DNA from: a virus
Taxonomy: Duplodnaviria; Caudoviricetes
Direction: 5' to 3' (one strand)
DNA length: 64,000 nt
Virus record (IMG/VR): IMGVR_UViG_3300042254_000186
Coordinates: 1-64,000 of that record
Made by a program: the position numbers and the translations under genes. Numbering within the stretch: the stretch's first letter is position 1; each line of letters opens with the position of its first letter. The notes below the pieces were generated by a model. It was not told where the DNA came from. It made no database searches and saw only the letters and a list, made by a program, of their open reading frames with translations. Positions 445 to 62,792 of this stretch are shown one piece after another.

Positions 445-535
445 GGAGAAGTACCCAAGTGGCTAAAGGGGCGGGCTTGGAAAGCTCGTAGGTCGGTAAA
501 ACGGCGCAGGGGTTCGAATCCCCTTTTCTCCGCCA
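445..535 (+). tRNA. tRNA-Ser (anticodon GGA)
   Basis: Acceptor GGAGAAG/TTTCTCC, anticodon arm CGGGC-TT-GGA-AA-GCTCG, long variable arm, GGTTCGAATCC, encoded CCA. Confidence 0.95.
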
Positions 536-881: not shown

Positions 882-920
882 AACGACCGACTCTAATTTA
901 ATGCGTCGATCGTTTTTTTT
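882..920. terminator. Intrinsic terminator between convergent genes
   Basis: AACGACCGAC...GTCGATCGTT stem then T-run; positional homolog at 56902-56940. Confidence 0.7.
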
Positions 921-1120
921 TATTTCATTATATATTCCATAATATCTTTGAAGTCACAACTTAGTGCTTTACAAATCTTGCATAAAACATCAGTAGTTAC
1001 ATTCTCGCCCTTTGTGAGCTTTGCTATTGAAGAAGAACTTACACCTGAGAGCTTAATAAGCTCTTTTTTATTTATCCCTTTATCAATTAGAAGTTTCCAT
1101 AACTTATTATAACTAACCAT
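920..1120 (-). CDS. Xre/Cro-type HTH regulator, 66 aa
   Basis: MVSYNKLWKLLIDK...GVSSSSIAKL..GENVTTDVL, typical HTH_26-like; GGAGG RBS upstream of ATG 1120; 61/66 identical to 56939-57139. Confidence 0.85.
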   Translation of the reverse strand: MVSYNKLWKLLIDKGINKKELIKLSGVSSSSIAKLTKGENVTTDVLCKICKALSCDFKDIMEYIMK

Positions 1121-1130
1121 GCTTTCCTCC

Positions 1131-2933
1131 TTAGTTTTTTCTAATACCATTAAGTAGACCGTATCTGCCTCTGTCTTCATCTTGAGTAAATTCAATCACC
1201 TTGACTTTCGAATATGATTCAATATCAGCAGGTAAATCTTTAGGGTTTACATTCTCGATAACTATCATTTGATCATTTTCTATACTTTCAATTATATATT
1301 TGAAAAATCCTTGTCTTACATCATCTGTTGACTCGATTCCATCTGGCATAGTTAATCCATGTAACGGAGAATCAATTAAATAAAAATGCGGGTTGTTAAT
1401 TGAAAACTCATTAATATACTTTCTCATAGATAGAATTAAAATAGTATTTAATAGAGCTCTATAGCCTTTACCGTGTGTTTTCTTTGCGTCCCCATTAACT
1501 ATCACATCAAAATCATTCATATCGAAGACAACTGATTCTAGAGGTGTGAAATTGATTTTTCTTAATATGTCATAATAATAATCTGCAATAGAAGAAGCAA
1601 AGTCATCAGGAAATAAGTCTTTCGGTTTATACTCGATATGTTTGTCAATAGTGGAATCTAAATTTGATAAGTCACTTTCAAAACCTGATAGCATTAGATT
1701 AGTTGATTCTAGTTCGTGAATAGCTTTTATGTATTCATTGTACTTGCTAATTTTTTCAGCTATAGATTGCCTATGTGGTTTGAGTTGATTATTCATATCA
1801 TGATCAATATCTGACTTTTGTCTTTTTAGACCTTCCAACGTTTGCAGAAGAGCATCTTTTTCATTTGAAATATCATCAATTGTGGTCGATAGGGCAATAC
1901 TGCTAGCCAATATTTTTCTTGCTTCAGCTCTTGAAGCTTCTAGATAGGAGGATTCTTGATTTTTTTCAAGACTACCATTACAAAACGGGCAGTTAATTGG
2001 CGATTTATGATTATGAATAACATCTTCACCTTGTATAATGAATCCAAGCCTATTTATATCTGACACATATTGTGATTCTAATATCTTGTATCTGTCTAAT
2101 TGCATATTAACTCGTCTGATCGAGTTTTCAGTTTCTATAATTTGCCTTCCAATAGTTTTTATATTTGTAATCGATTCGTCAATGATCTTGTTAGTCTCAT
2201 CTAGTTCACTCTGCAAATTACTAATCATTTTCTCTAGTGATTCGCTATCTTTTTCAATTCCATTAATATATTTGCTTAAGGTCTCTCTTCGTCCAATGAG
2301 CTTTTCCTTGTTACTTATAATATATTTTTGAACAGCTGCTTTTTTAGCAGCTTTTGTTTTTTTATTTTCATCTGCATCAAATTCAGAAAAATCTTGATCG
2401 TATAAGATGTAAAGTAAACCTGATAAGAAAGCTGTTCTAGCAGTATAGTTATCAGGTAGTAATATTGATTTTTCTAACTCAGTGTCATTTTCATTTACGG
2501 TTAGTAATGATTTCAGTGTTCTCAATGAAAATCTTTGAGTTTGGCCATCAGTATTCTTAGGAACTTTTAATCCTATTTTAATATCAAGCAACTTTGAAAA
2601 GAAATCTCTAATATTATCTTTTTCACCTGAGATTTTGTAGTCAGTTGTTTTATTACCTTCAAGGACGCTGATGGTATTTGAACCAATCACTCTAGTTAGG
2701 GTTATTGATGATAAATTTTTAATTAACTCCATTCTAATCGTATCGTAGCCTATAGATTTATCAAAAGGTGCACTATCATTACTTGCACCTAACATGTAGT
2801 AAATTGATTTATAAATATATGATTTACCAGTGTCTGAGGGACCGATGATAATTGTTAGATTCTCTCCGAAATTAATCTCTGATACACCTTTTTCACCAGT
2901 GTACATAAGTTTGCTAATATATAATCTTCCCAT
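1131..2933 (-). CDS. lmuB: SMC/Rad50-like ABC ATPase of a Lamassu / ABC-three-component system (LmuB-like)
   Basis: Walker A GPSDTGKS, long coiled coil with central CPFC zinc hook, GKG signature variant, Walker B LIDSP; third gene of a three-gene operon. Confidence 0.8.
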   Translation of the reverse strand: MGRLYISKLMYTGEKGVSEINFGENLTIIIGPSDTGKSYIYKSIYYMLGASNDSAPFDKSIGYDTIRMELIKNLSSITLTRVIGSNTISVLEGNKTTDYKISGEKDNIRDFFSKLLDIKIGLKVPKNTDGQTQRFSLRTLKSLLTVNENDTELEKSILLPDNYTARTAFLSGLLYILYDQDFSEFDADENKKTKAAKKAAVQKYIISNKEKLIGRRETLSKYINGIEKDSESLEKMISNLQSELDETNKIIDESITNIKTIGRQIIETENSIRRVNMQLDRYKILESQYVSDINRLGFIIQGEDVIHNHKSPINCPFCNGSLEKNQESSYLEASRAEARKILASSIALSTTIDDISNEKDALLQTLEGLKRQKSDIDHDMNNQLKPHRQSIAEKISKYNEYIKAIHELESTNLMLSGFESDLSNLDSTIDKHIEYKPKDLFPDDFASSIADYYYDILRKINFTPLESVVFDMNDFDVIVNGDAKKTHGKGYRALLNTILILSMRKYINEFSINNPHFYLIDSPLHGLTMPDGIESTDDVRQGFFKYIIESIENDQMIVIENVNPKDLPADIESYSKVKVIEFTQDEDRGRYGLLNGIRKN

Positions 2934-2939
2934 GTCATT

Positions 2940-3377
2940 TTACCCCTTTCTTACAGCTTTTTTAGTAGCAAGCGTAACAATTTGTTTTTCATTCATATTT
3001 GAAGTGATATCATTAACTATTTTCACACATTGACTATATTGGTTAAAGTAATCGGTATCCATTTTAGAGCAAATGATTCTACCTTCTTCACTAATCTTGT
3101 ATGTGAATCCATAAGCATTTTGAATAGGGATCACCAAACCTTCAAGAACTAGTGATTTTAATGCATCATTGATTAATTTTCTTCTTGAAGTTATTTCACT
3201 AAAAGTATAGGTATTATCTCCATGCAAATTGAAATCAATCATATCATACGCTTTTCCATATGTTGCAAATAAATCAATAGATGTTACTTCATCTAAAGAG
3301 CAGTTTTTATTAATGACATTCAATAAAACAAGAACTCGAAACGAAATCTCATGCTTTGAATTAAATATTTTTATCAT
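2940..3377 (-). CDS. lmuC: ABC-3C middle component (LmuC-like)
   Basis: FNSxxEISxR...IDLFxxYG...NLHGD...SEIxSRR motifs typical of ABC-3C middle components; start overlaps the upstream gene. Confidence 0.7.
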   Translation of the reverse strand: MIKIFNSKHEISFRVLVLLNVINKNCSLDEVTSIDLFATYGKAYDMIDFNLHGDNTYTFSEITSRRKLINDALKSLVLEGLVIPIQNAYGFTYKISEEGRIICSKMDTDYFNQYSQCVKIVNDITSNMNEKQIVTLATKKAVRKG

Positions 3378-4317
3378 AATCAACCACCCATTCAATTCGT
3401 CCATCATTGACTAACATGTGAATTATACCTTGTTTTTCTGAATTGCCGATTAAACCGACGTTTTGTCTAGCTAAATACGACCGACCATATGTAATCGTCA
3501 CTGCATGATTCATTGTCCTATTAACTCTCTCGAAAGCATTATTATATGCTGCAATCATCACAGAGAATATGCCATCAAAAGTTTCATCTTTCATAATATT
3601 GAACTCTTCTTCACCATCTTCATATATGTCTCTTATTTGGTGTAACACACTATCGGCACTAAAGTATGTCTTTCTTTGAAACTTAAAATGCTCTTCATAT
3701 TGAGGTTCCAAAGATTTTAAGTCGTCAACGGTCAATGGGCCTAAGCCTGCAGCTTGTGAGTACACTCTCATTAATGCATCAACATACGGCATTTCTTTTT
3801 CTAAGATATTTTCTGTAGGTACGAGTTTTGGATATAGCTTTATCGTTTTCCCACCAATCCTAACTTTGTTATCGCTAATGAATTCAGAATCTCTAATGCT
3901 AGTAGAAGGACTGACATTAACAATGTAATACATAATATCATCCAACGTATCAGTAAGTCCTTGTTCAAAGTCAGTGGGATTAATTTTGATATTAAAAATC
4001 TCGAACTCAGAAATAATATGGTCTATTGCTTCTACTGAAAGATTACTAGAAAAACTTTCAAAGGTTGATGAGTCCAAATTGCCACGTATAAAAGAAGCGC
4101 AATTCTGAGGAAGTGCTTCCGTTCCATTAAAAACTTTTCTTGAAAAATCTGAAGAAAGGTCATCTATAGGGTTTTTATCATCATCATTTATTGAAATGAA
4201 TGCATTAAGATATGTCTTAAGTTTATCTTCTTTTGTTACCCTGCTAGAAGCGGATGAACACATTACTTCATTCCAAAGATACTGATCAATGATTGAGAGA
4301 AATTGATTTAGTTTCAT
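3361..4317 (-). CDS. ABC-3C first component (LmuA-like C-terminal domain) with non-nuclease, possibly HTH-like N-terminus
   Basis: C-terminal ExxYVDALxRVY...QRxxYFxA...KQGxxHMLVNxGxIEW resembles ABC-3C CTDs; first gene of the operon. Confidence 0.65.
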   Translation of the reverse strand: MKLNQFLSIIDQYLWNEVMCSSASSRVTKEDKLKTYLNAFISINDDDKNPIDDLSSDFSRKVFNGTEALPQNCASFIRGNLDSSTFESFSSNLSVEAIDHIISEFEIFNIKINPTDFEQGLTDTLDDIMYYIVNVSPSTSIRDSEFISDNKVRIGGKTIKLYPKLVPTENILEKEMPYVDALMRVYSQAAGLGPLTVDDLKSLEPQYEEHFKFQRKTYFSADSVLHQIRDIYEDGEEEFNIMKDETFDGIFSVMIAAYNNAFERVNRTMNHAVTITYGRSYLARQNVGLIGNSEKQGIIHMLVNDGRIEWVVDYDKNI

Positions 4318-4432
4318 TAACTAACACCTCCTGGAAAACGGAGTTAAAAGCTACCTCCGTTCGACTCTCATTTGAGATATAAAAAAAATATATAATCATG
4401 TTGTCAGAAAGTTAATCGATTTTGCCGACTTA

Positions 4433-4461
4433 ATTATATCAAATTAATCATACATATACAA
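4433..4461 (-). promoter_or_regulatory. SigA-type promoter of the Lamassu-Xre operon
   Basis: Minus strand TTGTAT-17 nt-TATAAT with extended TG; equivalent promoter at 60454-60482. Confidence 0.65.
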
Positions 4462-4502: not shown

Positions 4503-4721
4503 TGATAACAGGCTTTATATTTCGTTAGTGTCATGAACTAACTCCCAGAAATATAAAGCTTAAAACTTAATATAATGCAGTATGCGTTGGGACGTTGTCT
4601 GCAAATTGAAATGGAGTTATTCAGTTAACCCTTCTTTTTGCGACCCCTTTGAACTGCCTACATGACTGAGAAAGAATATCTCCATTTTTAGAAAACAAAT
4701 CTAAACTGGAGGTATTTTTTT
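4503..4721 (+). ncRNA. Structured 5' leader / putative RNA switch upstream of the sigma-like gene
   Basis: Three hairpins, the last sequestering GGAGG; alternative pairing 4608-4622 with 4674-4688; conserved with compensatory changes at 60524-60723. Confidence 0.65.
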
Positions 4722-5306
4722 ATGAGATTGTCTAAAGCAGAAAAGAATCAAAATCCTAAATTATATGGATATGGAACCCTCGAACAGCTTCAAAGCGATC
4801 CAGAAAACACGCAAACACACTGGATTCTTTATAAGGATGCGGATGGGGATTACAGGTTCATTCCTTGTGACGAGGCTTATTATCATGCGTATAGAAATGA
4901 AGAACGTAATGAAAGACGTTTGCGTGACTTGGAATCAAGGTGTTTAATTCCATCTGAAAAATACGGGTTAGTGAAATGTCGAGCTGATTGTAGTCTGTGT
5001 CCAAAAGTTAGAGACGGACTTCCTATCTCTATTGATTACATGCGCGAGCATTATGGTTTTGATTTCAAAGATAAGTCTTATGAAGTAAAGGAAGAAGAAT
5101 TATATGAACAAGAACAAAAGGATTTTATTTGGAATGTTGTGAGTGAACTTGATCCTGTAGATCAAAAGATACTCAAACTCTTTAATGCGGGTAAAAAGGA
5201 TGCTGAAATCGCTGAAGTATTAAGTAAATCACGAAGCAGAATTCAGGAACGCAGAGTTCAACTGATTGAACTTTTAAAAGAAAAATTAAAAAAGTTTAAC
5301 GAATAA
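4722..5306 (+). CDS. Phage sigma-70 region 4-like transcription activator (sigma-like 1)
   Basis: C-terminal LDPVDQKILKL...DAEIAEVLSKSRSRIQERR HTH; CxxxCxxC motif; heads the early operon. Confidence 0.75.
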   Translation: MRLSKAEKNQNPKLYGYGTLEQLQSDPENTQTHWILYKDADGDYRFIPCDEAYYHAYRNEERNERRLRDLESRCLIPSEKYGLVKCRADCSLCPKVRDGLPISIDYMREHYGFDFKDKSYEVKEEELYEQEQKDFIWNVVSELDPVDQKILKLFNAGKKDAEIAEVLSKSRSRIQERRVQLIELLKEKLKKFNE

Positions 5307-5385: not shown

Positions 5386-5562
5386 ATGCAGAAAGAAAAA
5401 AAGCCCAATAAGCCCTATCTGACGGATAAGGATTTAGTTGAAACGCTGCTATTAATCAGTGAGACATCTAAAACATTGGCACTTGAAGTAATGTTGCTTC
5501 CGGATGAAGCAGAAGGTAATGGAGGTGAGGATGATGTCAAGAAGTCCGACGACCCACAGTAG
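5386..5562 (+). CDS. Small hypothetical phage protein
   Basis: AAGGAGG RBS before ATG 5386; overlaps the next gene start. Confidence 0.6.
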   Translation: MQKEKKPNKPYLTDKDLVETLLLISETSKTLALEVMLLPDEAEGNGGEDDVKKSDDPQ

Positions 5563-6715
5563 AAAGTATAGCCCTAGTAAAAGTGGCACATGGTTAAACT
5601 GTCCACTCAGTACACTCCTAAATGATGGATCAAGTCAAGAATCAAGTCCTCAAGCAGAGTTTGGTACACAATGTCATGAACTGGGTGCAGCCTTAATCAG
5701 TAAGTCTCTCCATTTAGTTGATTACGATAATGAGGCCAAATCTGTTGAAGATATCATCAAAGAGCTTGATATGTATTCAGAGGATATGCAGGAAATTGCA
5801 GATGGGTATGCTGATTTCGTTATTAAGACGATTGAGTATGAAAAGAAAAGGTCGAATAGTGATCCAATCATTGTGATTGAACAGCACCTAGACATGGATT
5901 TCGATGATGATGCAGGTGGAACATTAGATTGTGGGATTATCTCATCAATGGGTGGCGGAACATTATCAGTGATTGATTTAAAGACTGGTCGAACACCTGT
6001 TTATGCGTTTGATCATGAAAAAAATGTATTTAATTCTCAACTCGGAATCTATGCACTGTACTTTTACAAGGCATACAAAGACTTATACCCAATCAAGAAT
6101 GTAAGACTTGTCATTTATCAACCTGTTATCTCAAATACAAATGATTATGAGATGCCGATTGAGGAACTATTAAAGTTTGAAACTGAGATCTTAAAGCCAG
6201 CAGTCATGAGAACTAAATCAACTAACTTAGAAGCTGTTCCAGGGAAGTATTGTCGCTATTGTGCAGGAAAAGCAATCTGTGCCAAACGTGCAGAAGTTAA
6301 CCAGGAAGTTATTAAAGAATTGAAAAAACCTATGGCAAGAATGACTGATGATGACATTGAAAATTTACTTCCCTATCTTGATGAAGTCATTCAATATGCA
6401 AAAGATGTCATGGAGTTTGCAGTAAAGAAAGCCTTAAATGGTCACAGTTGGAAAAACTACAAGCTTGTTCATACCAAAGGATCTAGGAAAATTACTGATG
6501 AAGATGGTGTCATCAAAGCTTGTGAAAATGAAGGTATTGATCCTTACGCTCCAAAGAAGGTCGCTGGGATTACAGAATTAACGAAAAGAATAGGCAAGAA
6601 CAGAGTTGATGCTCTTATTGGTTCATACATCAATATGCAACTAGGTTCATTAGTTTTAGTACCAAAATCAGATCCTCGTGAAGAGGCAACAATTATCGAA
6701 GAAGGAGATAAATAA
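5531..6715 (+). CDS. DUF2800 family Cas4-like PD-(D/E)xK nuclease
   Basis: SPS...W..CP, GTxCHE, GTLD, IDLKTG, QL..YA, CRYC..K..C motifs. Confidence 0.8.
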   Translation: MMSRSPTTHSRKYSPSKSGTWLNCPLSTLLNDGSSQESSPQAEFGTQCHELGAALISKSLHLVDYDNEAKSVEDIIKELDMYSEDMQEIADGYADFVIKTIEYEKKRSNSDPIIVIEQHLDMDFDDDAGGTLDCGIISSMGGGTLSVIDLKTGRTPVYAFDHEKNVFNSQLGIYALYFYKAYKDLYPIKNVRLVIYQPVISNTNDYEMPIEELLKFETEILKPAVMRTKSTNLEAVPGKYCRYCAGKAICAKRAEVNQEVIKELKKPMARMTDDDIENLLPYLDEVIQYAKDVMEFAVKKALNGHSWKNYKLVHTKGSRKITDEDGVIKACENEGIDPYAPKKVAGITELTKRIGKNRVDALIGSYINMQLGSLVLVPKSDPREEATIIEEGDK

Positions 6716-56901: not shown

Positions 56902-56940
56902 AGCGACCCAGCTCTTAATTGAGTTGAGTCGCTTTTTTTT
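56902..56940. terminator. Intrinsic terminator between convergent genes
   Basis: AGCGAC.CAGCTC/GAGTTG.GTCGCT plus T-run. Confidence 0.75.
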
Positions 56941-57139
56941 ATTTGTCTATATATTCCATGATGTCCTTAAAATCGCACTTTAAAGCTTTGCAGATTTTAC
57001 ATAGAACGTCTGTTGTAACATTCTGACCTTTTGTCATTTTTGCTATGGAAGATGAACTTACTCCAGAGAGCTTAATGAGCTCTTTTTTATTTAGCCCCTT
57101 ATCGATTAGTAGTTTCCATAATTTATTATAACTAACCAT
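56939..57139 (-). CDS. Xre/Cro-type HTH regulator (paralog of 920-1120)
   Basis: 61/66 residues identical to copy 1. Confidence 0.88.
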   Translation of the reverse strand: MVSYNKLWKLLIDKGLNKKELIKLSGVSSSSIAKMTKGQNVTTDVLCKICKALKCDFKDIMEYIDK

Positions 57140-57150
57140 TAGATTTCCTC

Positions 57151-58953
57151 CTAATTTTTTCTAATGCCTTTTAGTAATCCATATCGGCCTTTGTTCTCAC
57201 TTTTTGTAAATTCTATAATACTAATATTTGGATCGGTGTTAATATCTTTTGAAAGATCACCAGGAACAATGTTTTCCATAATAATAATTTGATCATCTCC
57301 ATAATTATTAATAACGTAGTTAAAAAACCCTTTTCTAACGTTTTCATCTTGTTGAACTCCTTCTGGCATCTGTATACCATGCAAAGGAGAATCTAATAAA
57401 TAGAAGTGAGGGTTCTTGATAGCAACTTCATTGATGTATTCACGCATAGAGAGAATCATTATTGAATTGAGTAATGCTCTTACACCTTTTCCATGTGTCT
57501 TTTTTTCATCTCCATTAACAATTATATCGAGTTTAGATAAATCAAATTCCGCTGAATTTGCTGGAGTATATTTACATCTCTTTAGTATTGATAGGTATGT
57601 CTTATTTATAGTAGAGATAAAATCATCTGCAAATAACTCTTTTGGTTTATATGCACGTTTTTCACTTACCGTAGAGTCAAGATGGGATAAATCATTCTCA
57701 AAGTTATCAAGCAAAGAATTGATTAATTCTAAATCATTCGATGCTTTTACATAGGCTGAGTATTGACTAATTTTTTGAGTAATAGATACTTTTTGCGGTT
57801 TTAATTCGGTGCTTAGCAGATTGTCGATAGATTTCTTTTTCTTTTTCAAATCTTTAAGCTCATCTAAATAACTAGAAACTTCAAAATCTATATCTATTAG
57901 TGTTTGAGATAAAGACATACTGTTATTTAGTATTTTAACAACTTCAGCTCTCGAAGATTCCAAATAAGAAGCTTCTTGTTCCTTTTCTAATTCCCCATTG
58001 CAGAACGGGCAGTTATGTGGTGATTCATGCTTGTGGATTATATCCTCACCTTGAATGATGAAACCTAACCTCTCAATGTCAGCAATATATTGAGATTCGA
58101 GTGCTTTGTATCTGTTTTGAGTTATCTTTCTTGTTCTAATTAATTCTTCTTTCTTGGTTATCTCGGAGCTTACATTTCTCATATCATTTATTGTTGATGA
58201 AATGAGTGAATTTGTCTTGTCAAGCTCGGTTTGGAGATCTTCAATTAAATTCTCAAGATATGTATTATCTCCATTTTTCTCAGACAAGAATTTTTCAAGT
58301 GAGTCTTTTTGCTGCAAAAACTTTTCTTTATTACTAATGATATACTTTTGAACAGCAGCTCTTTTAGCAGCTTTGGTTTTTTTATTTTCTTCTGCATCAA
58401 ACTCTGAATAATCTTGTTCATATAAAATATACAATAAGCATGATAAGAATGAAGTTGTGTTTTGAACAATGTCAGGAGTCAATATAGGTTTTTCTAACTC
58501 AGTATTATCCTCATGTACAAATAGTAGTGGTTTTAGACTTCGAAATGAAAAAGCCTCAGTTTGACCATCTTCATTTTTAGGTACTTGTAGCGATACAGGT
58601 ATATCTAATATCTCAGAAAAGACTTCTCTAATGTTATCTTTTTTTCCACTAACTTTATAAATCTTATTCTTTATACCATCATTAACGAGAATTTTATTTT
58701 CACCGATTTTTCTAGTTAATGTAATATGCGAATTGTCCTTCCTTACTTCCATAGAAATAGTATCATATCCAATTGAAGTATCAAAAGGTGCGTTCTTATT
58801 GCTAGAGCCTAAAAGATAATAAATTGACTTAAACACATATGTTTTACCGGTATCAGAAGGGCCAAAAATCAACGTTAGGTTTTCACCAAATGTGATTTCT
58901 GAGATTCCTTTAGTTCCAGTAAAAGTTAGTTTATTTATGTGAAATTTTCCCAT
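57151..58953 (-). CDS. lmuB: LmuB-like SMC ATPase, copy 2
   Basis: GPSDTGKT, CPFC, HGKG, LLDSP. Confidence 0.8.
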   Translation of the reverse strand: MGKFHINKLTFTGTKGISEITFGENLTLIFGPSDTGKTYVFKSIYYLLGSSNKNAPFDTSIGYDTISMEVRKDNSHITLTRKIGENKILVNDGIKNKIYKVSGKKDNIREVFSEILDIPVSLQVPKNEDGQTEAFSFRSLKPLLFVHEDNTELEKPILTPDIVQNTTSFLSCLLYILYEQDYSEFDAEENKKTKAAKRAAVQKYIISNKEKFLQQKDSLEKFLSEKNGDNTYLENLIEDLQTELDKTNSLISSTINDMRNVSSEITKKEELIRTRKITQNRYKALESQYIADIERLGFIIQGEDIIHKHESPHNCPFCNGELEKEQEASYLESSRAEVVKILNNSMSLSQTLIDIDFEVSSYLDELKDLKKKKKSIDNLLSTELKPQKVSITQKISQYSAYVKASNDLELINSLLDNFENDLSHLDSTVSEKRAYKPKELFADDFISTINKTYLSILKRCKYTPANSAEFDLSKLDIIVNGDEKKTHGKGVRALLNSIMILSMREYINEVAIKNPHFYLLDSPLHGIQMPEGVQQDENVRKGFFNYVINNYGDDQIIIMENIVPGDLSKDINTDPNISIIEFTKSENKGRYGLLKGIRKN

Positions 58954-58958
58954 ATAAG

Positions 58959-59396
58959 TTATTCCCTCCTAACAGATTCTTTTGTAGCATAATTGATTAA
59001 TTTTTCATCGGTCCAATTTTGCGTTTTTTGAATAATCAATCTGACACTATCAATATACTTTTTAAAATAATCAGTTTCCATTTTTTCACAAACCTTACGA
59101 CCATCCTCACTGATAATATATGTAAATCCATAAGCGTTTTGAAGTGGCATTAGTAATCCGGATAAAACGAGAGTGTTTATTGATTGGGAAACCTGATATC
59201 TTCGTGATGCAATTTCGCTAAAGCTATATGAACTGTCTCCGTGAAGATTAAATTCCAAAAAACCATAGTTTTTTCCATAACTTGAAAACAAATCAATAGT
59301 TGTAATATGATCAACTGATATTGGAGCTCTCATCACATTTGTTATAACGAGAACTCTTAATGATATTTCAAGTTCAGAATTAAATATCTGTGTCAT
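58959..59396 (-). CDS. lmuC: LmuC-like middle component, copy 2
   Basis: FNSELEISLR, IDLFSSYG, NLHGD, SEIASRR. Confidence 0.7.
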   Translation of the reverse strand: MTQIFNSELEISLRVLVITNVMRAPISVDHITTIDLFSSYGKNYGFLEFNLHGDSSYSFSEIASRRYQVSQSINTLVLSGLLMPLQNAYGFTYIISEDGRKVCEKMETDYFKKYIDSVRLIIQKTQNWTDEKLINYATKESVRRE

Positions 59397-60333
59397 AATC
59401 AACCACCCACTCAATCTTCCCTTCATTAACTAGCATATGAACCATTCCTTGTTTTTCAGGGTTTCCAATAATGCCATTATTGTCTCTAGTTAAAATGTTT
59501 TTGCTAAAGGTAATATCAACAACTTTTTGCATTGTACTATCAACTCTTTCGAGAGCATTCTTATACTCTTTCATGATAGTAATTTCAATACCAGAAAGTA
59601 AATCTGCTTTCGCTTCGTTAAACTCGTATTCTCCATCTGGAAATACATCTCTAATTTGATGAAGAACACTCTCGGCGTTAAAATAATTTTCTCTTTGTAA
59701 TTTAAAATGTTTTTCATATCTTGGATGCATTGATTTTAGATCAGTTAATGATATTGATCCGAATTTTTCTGATTGTGCATAGACACGTAGTAAGGCATCA
59801 ACATACCGTATTTCATTTTTTATTATAGCTTCTGTAGGGACAAGCTTATCTAATAAATTTACTGTCTTACCTCCGATTTTAACTTGGTTGTGACCGATAA
59901 AAACTGCATCACGTATTGAAGCTGAAGGCTTCACGTTTATAACGTAATAGAGTATGGTATCTAAGACCTTAGTAATATCTTTTTCAAAATTATCAAAAGT
60001 TATGGTGAAATTATAAGTCGCAAACTGTGAAATCATTCCATTTCTAGCATCCTCAGAGAGATCTTCTGAAAATATTTCAAATGTATAATAATCCAAATTT
60101 TCTTTTATATAAGAGGCGCAATCTACAGGTAAAGATTCTACTCCATTGAAAACCTTAAGTAAAAACCCATCTTTTCTCTTCTCGATTGGATTAGCTGAAT
60201 CCACTGCGGATACAAATGCATTCAAATAAGTCTTTAATTTGTCTGCTTTTGTAACCCTACCAGATTTAGAACCGCTTAAGACTTTATGACTAAAATATTG
60301 TTCCATTATTGATAAAAAATCATTTAGTTTCAT
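59380..60333 (-). CDS. LmuA-like first component, copy 2
   Basis: Colinear homolog of 3361-4317. Confidence 0.65.
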   Translation of the reverse strand: MKLNDFLSIMEQYFSHKVLSGSKSGRVTKADKLKTYLNAFVSAVDSANPIEKRKDGFLLKVFNGVESLPVDCASYIKENLDYYTFEIFSEDLSEDARNGMISQFATYNFTITFDNFEKDITKVLDTILYYVINVKPSASIRDAVFIGHNQVKIGGKTVNLLDKLVPTEAIIKNEIRYVDALLRVYAQSEKFGSISLTDLKSMHPRYEKHFKLQRENYFNAESVLHQIRDVFPDGEYEFNEAKADLLSGIEITIMKEYKNALERVDSTMQKVVDITFSKNILTRDNNGIIGNPEKQGMVHMLVNEGKIEWVVDYDTDI

Positions 60334-60523: not shown

Positions 60524-60723
60524 TTGATAACGCATGCTTATCCATTACTAGTGTGGATTTCGCAAAAGCATGTAGAAATAATTAAGCAGAACTAACCATT
60601 GCGAGGAAAGTCTGCAAAATAAATGGATATACTCATATACCATTCTTTTTGCTGACGCCTATAAACTGCCTACATACTACGAAAAGAGTATCTCCATTAA
60701 TTCAAAAATGGAGGTATTTTTTT
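60524..60723 (+). ncRNA. Structured leader / RNA switch, copy 2
   Basis: Same architecture as 4503-4721 with compensatory base changes. Confidence 0.65.
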
Positions 60724-61356
60724 ATGAAATTACGTAAAACACCAATCTCGAAAAGAATGACATACACCTATTTTTTTGCTAACGGAGATAAGGTCATCCT
60801 GGAACCAGGAAGATCAACAACGATTTATGCATCCGGTGGTAGAACCATACAAGTTGATGAATCTATCACTGAAATCACAATTACCGAACTTCACAGACAA
60901 GATGATGCTGAAGTAAGAGCAAACCTTAAATATATCAACTGTGAAAGCAACATAGAGCGACAAGCACGCATAGCTAATAAAAAGAAGTGGGCTATGGAAC
61001 ATCCTGAAGAAGTTAATCCATATGACAAACCACCAAGAATCATGAATCTCGATGCATTTAATGATGATGAAAACTCACAAGACGATAAAAGCAGTCTGTT
61101 ATATAAAGCATCTATTTACTCAGAGCAAATCAACTCTGATGATAATTATGAAAAGCTCGAGCTCATCAAAGAGTTTGTTGCTACATTACCAACTACCATG
61201 CAAGAGATGTTTGACCTTATCTATATTCAAGAACTAAAACAATCAGATGTTTGCTCGATTTTAGGTATATCAAAAAGCACGGTATCAGAACGTGTAAAAA
61301 CACTTAACAAAAAAATAATTGAACATTTTTCAAACCAACCCGAACTTTTGAGATAA
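60724..61356 (+). CDS. Phage sigma-70 region 4-like activator (sigma-like 2)
   Basis: LPTTMQEMFDLIY...KQSDVCSILGISKSTVSER; GGAGG RBS before ATG 60724. Confidence 0.75.
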   Translation: MKLRKTPISKRMTYTYFFANGDKVILEPGRSTTIYASGGRTIQVDESITEITITELHRQDDAEVRANLKYINCESNIERQARIANKKKWAMEHPEEVNPYDKPPRIMNLDAFNDDENSQDDKSSLLYKASIYSEQINSDDNYEKLELIKEFVATLPTTMQEMFDLIYIQELKQSDVCSILGISKSTVSERVKTLNKKIIEHFSNQPELLR

Positions 61357-61411: not shown

Positions 61412-61639
61412 ATGCAATCCAAAAAGCATAGAGTTCGCATTAATTTAGCGGACAAAAGGAGTAGGAATACCAACATCATCGAGACTATGGATGAGACACT
61501 TCCAAAAAAACTATTCAATAAGTTATTCGGTAAGAAAAAACGAGTCTTGATTATTGCTCCAAGTGATTCGGTAACAGGCATTGAAATATATGAAGAGGTA
61601 GGTGAAAGAAATGTCAAGAAGCCCAACGGTTCACAGTAG
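61412..61639 (+). CDS. Small hypothetical phage protein
   Basis: AGAGG RBS; LF..LFG...VLII.P.DSV..IEI pattern. Confidence 0.65.
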   Translation: MQSKKHRVRINLADKRSRNTNIIETMDETLPKKLFNKLFGKKKRVLIIAPSDSVTGIEIYEEVGERNVKKPNGSQ

Positions 61640-62792
61640 AAAGTATAGCCCAAGTAAAAGTAGTATCTGGCTAAACTGTCCACTTAGTACATTCTACAAC
61701 AACACAAAACATCAAGAAGTAAGTCCACAAGCAGAGTTCGGAACGCAATGTCATGAGTTAGGTGCTGCACTCATTAGTAAGTCATTAGGATTAATCGATT
61801 ATGACAGTGAAGTTAAACCAATTGATGAACTAATCAAAGAACTCGATATGTATTCAGATGAAATGCAGGATATAGCGGATGGGTATGCGAACTTTGTAAT
61901 TAACACCATTGAGTTTGAAAAGAAACGATCTGATGCAGAACCATTTGTAGTTATCGAACAACACCTGGATATGGATTTTGATGAAGACGCAAAAGGGACA
62001 CTTGACTGCGGAATCATCTCATCTATGAATGGTGGAACACTTACAGTTATTGATTTAAAGACAGGTAGATTACCAGTGTATGCATTTGACACAGAAGAAG
62101 ACTCGTTCAACACACAACTTGCCATATATGCACTTTACCTATACAAGGTATACAAAGACTTATATCCAGTTAATAAAGTAAGGCTTGTAATTTACCAACC
62201 TGTTATCAATAACACCAATGAATACGAGATGGATTTAGAAGAGTTATTGAAGTTTGAAACAGAAGTATTATTGCCAGCAGTCGAAAAAACAAGAACAGGA
62301 TATCTAGAAGGAAATACGGGTAAACATTGCAGATACTGTTCCGGAAGATTTATGTGTGTAAAAAGAGGAGATGAATTTATAAAAATGTCAAAAGAATTAA
62401 TAAAACCTTTGTCAGTTCACTCTGATGAAAAGATAGAAGAATTTTTACCAAAGCTAGATGACTATATACGTTATGCAAATGAGCTGAAAGAGTTCGCAAT
62501 CAATCGAGCAAAAAACGGTCATAAATGGAATGGATTTAAGTTGGTTCATGCTCGAGTTTCAAGAAAAGTAACAGACGAAGCTGGGTTGATAAAGGCTTGT
62601 GAAGAAGTTGGAATTGATCCATATGGTGCACAAAAAGTCGCAGGAATTACAGAACTGACCAAACGAATCGGTAAAGACAAAGTCACTAGCATTATCGGAC
62701 CCTACATTACGATGCAAACAGGTTCCATGATACTAGTGCCAGAAACAGATCCTCGTGAAGAGGTAACAACAATAGAAGAAGGAGAAAAATAA
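61611..62792 (+). CDS. DUF2800 family nuclease, copy 2
   Basis: Colinear homolog of 5531-6715. Confidence 0.82.
   Translation: MSRSPTVHSRKYSPSKSSIWLNCPLSTFYNNTKHQEVSPQAEFGTQCHELGAALISKSLGLIDYDSEVKPIDELIKELDMYSDEMQDIADGYANFVINTIEFEKKRSDAEPFVVIEQHLDMDFDEDAKGTLDCGIISSMNGGTLTVIDLKTGRLPVYAFDTEEDSFNTQLAIYALYLYKVYKDLYPVNKVRLVIYQPVINNTNEYEMDLEELLKFETEVLLPAVEKTRTGYLEGNTGKHCRYCSGRFMCVKRGDEFIKMSKELIKPLSVHSDEKIEEFLPKLDDYIRYANELKEFAINRAKNGHKWNGFKLVHARVSRKVTDEAGLIKACEEVGIDPYGAQKVAGITELTKRIGKDKVTSIIGPYITMQTGSMILVPETDPREEVTTIEEGEK

Follow-up and report, generated by a model that had tools for sequence, protein, structure and literature searches.

In the E. coli thiM TPP riboswitch, an anti-anti-Shine-Dalgarno (anti-anti-SD) segment inside the aptamer and the Shine-Dalgarno sequence (SD) compete for the anti-SD strand, and the folded aptamer leaves the SD buried. 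In the S-box/SAM-I riboswitches and PyrR attenuators of Firmicutes, a hairpin and a U-run lie directly 5' of the gene, an alternative helix uses the 5' strand of the terminator, and the decision is expected to fall during transcription. The closest catalogued relative of the leaders described here is the DUF2800 RNA motif (Rfam RF02960, type Cis-reg), which reportedly comes from the survey of 224 motifs by Weinberg et al. in 2017. The main text of that survey (PMC5737381) makes no mention of the motif, and no function, ligand or mechanism for RF02960 was found in open full text.

The window analysed here, 64 kb of DNA that form the first part of a 101.7-kb IMG/VR virus record, contains a tandem of two related prophage-like elements. 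Both are built alike, with a leftward operon consisting of an ABC-3C/Lamassu-type trio (an ABC ATPase of 600 aa, MC2 and CTD6) with a small Cro/C1-type HTH_26 gene at its end, a gene-free stretch of about 400 nt, and a rightward operon encoding a small regulator, a small ORF, a DUF2800 PD-(D/E)XK protein, an AAA_24 ATPase and a SNF2-type helicase. The leaders stand at the 5' end of this rightward operon, which we read as the early (regulator and replication) operon of a prophage. The DUF2800 genes lie about 800 nt 3' of each leader, a spacing shared by some 40 related loci. Genomes with the labels Acholeplasmataceae, Mariniplasma, Anaeroplasmataceae and 'Tenericutes' encode close relatives of this protein, and the hosts are thus wall-less Bacilli using the standard genetic code. 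The sequencing runs listed as containing the window DNA are exclusively DNA metagenomes (wastewater, oil facility, landfill), and a blastn search with leader and gene against a phage GenBank collection gave no match. The coordinates of all features are collected in Table 1.

Table 1. Features of the two leaders and their surroundings (positions in the window; MFE, minimum free energy fold)
Feature	Position	Strand	Remarks
GATAAC hexamer	4504-4509 and 60526-60531	+	Directly 5' of P1 in both copies
P1 hairpin, copy 1	4510-4561	+	20 bp and internal loop; apical loop (4530-4536) with palindrome UCAUGA; MFE; Rfam model positions 1-52
P1 hairpin, copy 2	60532-60573	+	Apical loop (60546-60554) with palindrome ACUAGU; MFE
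Putative sensor domain, copy 1	4577-4657	+	P2 GCAGU:ACUGC, P2a GUC.GCAAA:UUUGC.GAC, P3 GAA..GG.GUUA:UAACCC.UUC; MFE; P2a/P3 covariation
P2/P2a/P3 domain, copy 2	60586-60669	+	MFE
ACTGCCTACAT	4653-4663 and 60665-60675		Both copies
Segment 1 (anti-anti-SD), copy 1	4608-4622	+	P3 5' strand and GAAA junction; partner 4674-4688
Segment 1 (anti-anti-SD), copy 2	60622-60634	+	
Segment 2 (anti-SD, ..AUCUCCAUUUU), copy 1	4674-4688	+	Common strand of both alternative helices
Segment 2 (anti-SD), copy 2	60686-60698	+	
SD-sequestering, terminator-like hairpin, copy 1	4666-4726	+	24 bp; GGAGG 4708-4712, U-run 4715-4721, start codon 4722-4724
SD-sequestering, terminator-like hairpin, copy 2	60682-60723	+	17 bp; GGAGG 60710-60714, U-run 60717-60723, ATG 60724
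Mini-ORF from ATG within segment 1, copy 1	4611-4628		M-E-L-F-S-stop, 5 codons
Mini-ORF from ATG within segment 1, copy 2	60624-60656		10 codons
Candidate promoter, copy 1	4412-4440	+	TTAATC-17-TATATC; putative, read from the sequence; no call by consensus scan
First early ORF, element 1	4722-5306	+	194 aa; matches phrog_13787; C-terminus weakly sigma/HTH-like
First early ORF, element 2	60724-61356	+	210 aa; Sigma70_r4_2
DUF2800 gene, element 1	5504-6715		E 1e-84
DUF2800 gene, element 2	61602-62792		
ABC-3C/Lamassu-type trio and HTH_26 gene, element 1	920-4317	-	Divergent from leader
ABC-3C/Lamassu-type trio and HTH_26 gene, element 2	56939-60333	-	Divergent from leader
HTH_26 gene	920-1195	-	
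tRNA genes	355-426 and 445-532		55.9 and 49.7 bits; directly left of element 1

The two leaders, 4503-4721 and 60525-60723, have one common build, in which P1 is followed by P2/P2a/P3, a hairpin that buries GGAGG, a run of seven U residues (U7) and the ATG. The first-pass annotation had proposed such a shared architecture, and every element that it listed was recovered in both copies where it had been placed. Minimum free energy folds of 4503-4730 and 60525-60735 contain the same three modules in both copies, with energies of -63.0 (copy 1) and -53.5 kcal/mol (copy 2) that correspond to z-scores of -5.75 and -4.28 against dinucleotide shuffles, none of which was equally stable. The mutually exclusive pairing claimed for both copies was likewise confirmed: segment 1 and segment 2 form 14 of 15 standard pairs in copy 1, with one U-U mismatch, and 12 of 13 in copy 2. 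Because the SD hairpin and the segment 1:2 helix both use the anti-SD strand, they exclude each other. Between the copies, the reported difference of TATTC/GAATA versus TACTC/GAGTA is a true compensatory change of U-A to C-G.

A ATTATATCAAA block about 65 to 85 nt 5' of P1, common to copy 1, copy 2 and two sister loci (L023 and L063), is a promoter candidate and contains the candidate of copy 1 listed in Table 1; many sister leaders offer another candidate, an extended -10 with the pattern TGnTAnACT. A consensus scan of both copies did not call the promoter candidate of copy 1, and the terminator-like hairpin escaped the simple scanner because part of its U-run sits in the stem. Leader-peptide attenuation, for which the mini-ORFs starting within segment 1 made a candidate, was rejected: the mini-ORF is not conserved, and GC-rich members of the family have ACGG in place of ATGG.

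The leaders proved to be diverged, sub-threshold relatives of RF02960. At gathering scores, Rfam reported only the two tRNAs in the whole window. In a search at an E-value threshold, copy 1 (4510-4661, plus strand) aligned to all 158 positions of the model with 37.4 bits, below the gathering score of 60.2 (E = 1.3e-4 in 1.5 kb and 2e-6 per genome), and copy 2 reached only 13.7 bits against the same cut-off. The gathering score was reached by none of 20 sister loci, and 149 sampled genomes of the host phylum gave no RF02960 match in a search in which the controls were likewise silent. In the register of the model, P1, P2 and P3 of copy 1 are paired and the 5-bp inner P2a helix alone is unpaired; the independent MFE folds of both copies contain the same helices as the RF02960 architecture (P1 with its internal loop, linker, P2, P2a and P3). 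The suggestion in the first-pass annotation that the DUF2800 RNA motif be searched for was therefore right for the upstream domain.

Bona fide RF02960 members were sought in IMG/VR with a pattern derived from the Rfam consensus, which retrieved 19 GC-rich leaders; eight of the loci retrieved in this way scored 117 to 161 bits. In the loci that pass, the RF02960 match stops about 44 nt 5' of the start codon, so that switch segments 2 and 3 fall outside the model, and all of them carry GAAACGGAG in P3 and CCUCCGUUUC downstream, followed by CGGAGG and ATG, which is the platform of the window. The window leaders thus share with RF02960 the order and shape of P1, linker, P2, P2a and P3, the conserved UGCAA..GAAA(C/U)GGAG core, a location 5' of Firmicutes-type phage operons that encode a DUF2800 (PD-(D/E)XK) protein, and the anti-SD/SD platform 3' of the catalogued domain. 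They differ in being AT-rich and below the cut-off, in their P1 loop sequences, in a P2a inner helix that the model does not match, and in their hosts, which are Acholeplasmataceae and other Mollicutes-type bacteria. When leaders of both clades were combined in a single nhmmer profile, it recovered the two clades, which share the UGCAA-N-GAAA(Y)GGAG core together with the anti-SD/SD platform. This relationship removes most of the novelty of the leaders. What is new is a sketch of the mechanism that can be put to the test; the element itself is of a known kind. The switch platform singled out in the first-pass annotation lies outside the catalogued model.

Comparative data were assembled with the DUF2800 protein as bait, which yielded 54 viral and 14 genomic loci, and in nearly all loci with enough upstream DNA a leader was found about 800 to 900 nt 5' of the DUF2800 gene. 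Alignment A3 comprises 41 distinct leader sequences and A4 adds 19 Rfam-type leaders to A3 (58 leaders); a third sample of 80 loci was drawn by protein only, and nhmmer found the leader in 24 of them. The 39 Acholeplasma-clade leaders and 21 nhmmer-found leaders were collected independently of the RNA, the 19 GC-rich ones by a pattern that fixes most of segment 1. The named helices were counted column by column, because RNAalifold on the MAFFT alignment gave helix fragments only, a result of indels in P3 and at the top of the hairpin that misalign the helices.

Covariation in a deeper alignment had been set beforehand as the test of the alternative pairing, and the segment 1:2 helix was found to be 84 to 89% paired, with 7 to 10 compensated pairs, in samples of 41 to 71 leaders. 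In raw counts that ignore phylogeny, 83.7% of its cells are paired in the 41 leaders, with double changes at 8 of 15 pairs (31 cells), 84.1% in the 58 leaders, with double changes at 10 of 15 pairs (94 cells), and 88.7% in the 11-bp core of 71 leaders, with double changes at 7 of 11 pairs. Sliding the helix by one to three columns lowered pairing to 31-53% in the 41 leaders, slid controls over the three alignments gave 31-59%, and in none of the three did any of 500 shuffles reach the observed values. For comparison, the SD hairpin has 88.5% of its cells paired, with both sides changed at 7 pairs (31 cells; also raw counts, phylogeny ignored), and P2a/P3 is 84.1% paired. The anti-anti-SD helix therefore covaries as well as the SD hairpin.

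The pair variants of the segment 1:2 helix include U-A 38 / C-G 27, C-G 25 / U-A 20 / U-G 8 and A-U 56 / G-C 4. At the level of clades, AUGG:CCAU changes to ACGG:CCGU, and P3, the SD hairpin and the alternative helix all follow the change, which is the exact prediction of a four-strand switch. The protein-only sample added further compensations, namely GGAA:UUCC, CCGAAAUGGAG:CUCCAUUUCGG, GAAUCGG:CCGGUUC with a wobble and, in locus L145, GAAGCGGAG:CUCCGCUUC. Cognate segment 1:2 duplexes have a mean energy of -17.7 kcal/mol versus -12.8 kcal/mol for non-cognate ones, a value that none of 5,000 permutations reached. The frequent G-U pairs indicate that the constraint acts at the RNA level. With both helices covarying on a shared strand, comparative sequence and modelled folds favour the two-state reading of the first-pass annotation, in which the SD-sequestering hairpin would be OFF and the anti-anti-SD pairing ON.

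One protein pattern alone identifies at least 543 related phage loci in IMG/VR. The leader RNA is widespread in this phage group but not universal: nhmmer found no recognisable copy in 56 of the 80 phages with a closely related DUF2800 protein, and Rfam found no DUF2800 RNA match in any of 20 such phages tested. Three loci (L109, L122 and L145) lack a recognisable DUF2800 RNA, yet have an SD-burying hairpin 5' of the first early gene; the three-strand platform of L145 is strongly diverged (GAAGCGGAG / CUCCGCUUC). The leader superfamily may therefore be broader than current models detect.

The first-pass annotation had called the genes that follow the leaders two poorly similar sigma genes. A Pfam sigma-70 region 4 match is present in copy 2 only; the protein of copy 1 has only weak sigma-like PHROG matches, and BLASTP detected no similarity at all between the two. 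Both first-gene types, phrog_13787 and Sigma70_r4_2, are widespread behind the leader in sister phages (L004-L069), and a third type occurs in the GC-rich clade. This distribution indicates that the first gene is swapped as a module behind a fixed RNA; with one leader type 5' of at least three unrelated first genes, the conserved unit is the RNA and not the gene. On the other side of the gene-free stretch, the divergent slot of relatives carries other cargo, such as ABC-3C with CTD11/MC7, HamA (Hachiman) behind an HTH_26 gene, or a Peptidase_M78 protein, and in the GC-rich phages L080 and L098 it again holds an ABC-3C trio. It looks like a variable defence-cargo site adjoining the early promoter. 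An obligatory partnership of the RNA with the ABC-3C trio was considered and rejected, as the trio is adjacent in a minority of loci and other cargo is found elsewhere. The tRNA pair left of element 1 is likely the neighbourhood of the attachment site.

Folded without constraint, all 58 leaders have the SD paired in the MFE structure. Forcing the segment 1:2 helix on the full-length RNA costs 4.6 to 35 kcal/mol (mean 17.2; 58 leaders), and the helix is incompatible with P2/P2a, whose 3' strands lie within it; the completed RNA would thus be OFF by itself. When the RNA is cut after segment 2, the median difference between the states falls to 0.8 kcal/mol, with 35 of 58 leaders within 3 kcal/mol and copy 1 at 0.3 kcal/mol. 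Such near-equal modelled energies before the SD strand has been made fit a kinetically controlled, co-transcriptional switch. Two results count against the two-state reading: in copy 2, cut at the same point, the ON fold is 7.4 kcal/mol worse, and the ON fold requires the entire P2 domain to open. Riboswitches normally contest only the helix made last, and opening of a whole domain is unusual. In folds forced to ON, the 5' strand of P2 is freed to pair with that of P2a (UGCAG 4576-4580 : CUGCA 4598-4602), and in four sister leaders a G-to-A change in one strand coincides with C-to-U in the other; the register of this pairing varies between lineages. As judged from these modelled folds, UGCAG:CUGCA may be a hairpin that assists the ON state.

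The OFF hairpin had also been described as terminator-like, which is true of the AT-rich leaders and does not extend to the whole family. In the window, stable hairpins of 24 and 17 bp are each followed by U7, the arrangement of an intrinsic terminator, and a U-run of at least five follows the hairpin in 38 of 39 Acholeplasma-clade leaders. Among the GC-rich relatives, runs of at least five are present in 14 of 32 and runs of at least four in 17 of 32, leaving 15 without. Since about half of these relatives lack the U-run, the conserved output is SD sequestration and not termination. Transcription termination is plausible as an extra output in the Acholeplasma clade, where the U-rich spacer could instead reflect base composition.

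Three other explanations of the leaders have to be weighed. In one, the leader is static and holds the early regulator at a low level, as a constitutive damper of translation, a terminator or a stability element, and the segment 1:2 complementarity is a by-product of GGAG/CUCC, around which P3 and the SD hairpin are both built. The energies of the complete RNA suit it, OFF being the ground state in every leader, and so does the fact that the complementarity has the SD/anti-SD sequence at its core. However, the covariation reaches well past GGAG/CUCC on both flanks (GAAA:UUUC to GGAA:UUCC, CCGAAA:UUUCGG and GAAG:CUUC on one side; UAUUC:GAAUA to UACUC:GAGUA and AACUC:GAGU on the other), the covarying positions of segment 1 lie partly in the P3 loop, where P3 does not constrain them, and near-equal energies in the decision window are unexpected for a by-product. 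We regard a static element as improbable. An even smaller chance, that of a long shot, is given to DNA-level operators, in which the inverted and direct repeats would be binding sites for a repressor dimer, with the small HTH_26 protein encoded in the divergent operon as one candidate. P1 is a near-perfect palindrome through its apex, and the divergent operon of the window, like that of relatives, comes with a Cro/C1-type HTH_26 gene; but G-U wobbles, incompatible with a DNA site, are frequent in every helix (GU 22 / AU 13 / GC 5 at one pair of the hairpin, UG 7-11 at several pairs of the segment 1:2 helix), copy 1 matches a structured-RNA covariance model over its full length, and the elements sit between the likely promoter and the start codon.

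The remaining explanation starts from the P1 loops. Of 31 distinct apical loops, 16 carry a 6-nt palindrome where 2.5 would be expected, a number reached by none of 2,000 shuffles; eight different palindromes occur (loci L005-L098), those of the tandem elements differ, the non-palindromic loops share UUGCUA/UUGCUC, and several sister leaders have an extra upstream hairpin with a palindromic loop of its own. Judging from these sequences, the palindromes could let RNA copies recognise one another loop to loop. On a further-reaching view, the leader is mainly an RNA that acts in trans or recognises itself: default termination or processing would yield a stable RNA of about 220 to 280 nt, P1 loops would kiss or form dimers, and segment 1:2 pairing would be intermolecular, for immunity or copy sensing. 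RNA-based immunity has precedents in the CI RNA of phage P4 and in c4 of P1/P7. The enrichment and variety of the palindromes, their difference between the tandem elements and a U-run in 38 of 39 leaders of the AT-rich clade, through which a short RNA could accumulate, all speak for it. Against it, about half of the P1 loops have no palindrome, the stable fold hides segment 1 within P3, and segments 1 and 2 are near-identical between the elements and, by cross-duplex energies, give no specificity; moreover, segment 1 acting on the anti-SD of another copy would activate rather than repress, the wrong sign for immunity. An RNA acting in trans is thus unlikely, though somewhat less so than a static element. 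The boldest proposal, that DUF2800-type leaders are the master RNA gate for the lysis-lysogeny (early operon) choice in temperate phages of Firmicutes and Mollicutes, a very large group, with P2/P3 sensing a cellular signal and kissing of the P1/P0 loops giving self-recognition, is speculative and we would give it little credence. If true, it would amount to RNA-encoded specificity of immunity or copy number, and would explain why the two tandem prophages have one switch in common but differ in their loop palindromes.

The reading we prefer, and hold to be probable, is that each leader is a cis-acting RNA of the prophage early operon, combining an RF02960-like sensor domain with a two-state expression platform. 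The leaders pair a conserved aptamer-like domain with a platform of mutually exclusive helices, as metabolite riboswitches generically do. From the structures, covariation, energies and family relationship observed here, we infer switching, its direction and its co-transcriptional course. The sensor domain would consist of P1 and P2/P2a/P3, and in the expression platform, outside the Rfam model, segment 2 would pair either with segment 3 (the SD/start region) or with segment 1 (the P3 5' strand). The OFF state would be segment 2:3, with the ribosome-binding site buried and, in the AT-rich clade, a hairpin and U7 that also resemble an intrinsic terminator; the ON state would be segment 1:2. The decision most likely falls during transcription, as segment 2 emerges, a point at which the model gives the folded sensor and the segment 1:2 helix much the same stability. 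If a small ligand or a protein stabilised the folded domain even modestly, segment 2 would stay available and the SD hairpin would close, whereas an unliganded or unfolded domain would be invaded via the GAAA toehold, which is unpaired next to P3, and the SD would be exposed. Once complete, the RNA would relax to OFF.

This proposed switch resembles the thiM riboswitch in the competition of an anti-anti-SD inside the aptamer with the SD, and in burial of the SD by the folded aptamer. The likeness is one of mechanism only, without sequence or structural homology, and the contested strand of the window leaders lies in the core of the domain (P3) and not in the closing helix. With the S-box/SAM-I and PyrR leaders it shares the hairpin and U-run directly 5' of the gene, the alternative use of the 5' strand of that hairpin and a decision expected during transcription; unlike them, the window hairpin covers the SD and start codon too, and in the family as a whole termination is not the conserved output.

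These results extend the RF02960 family to Acholeplasma-type hosts, in a form that the Rfam threshold misses, and show that the catalogued domain is always followed by a co-evolving three-strand platform on the ribosome-binding site of the first early gene. The platform offers a mutational test of the role of the RNA and a read-out for searches for its ligand or partner. The leader sits where a temperate phage starts its early programme, and because the family is abundant, its control logic could matter for prophage induction in gut and wastewater bacteria.
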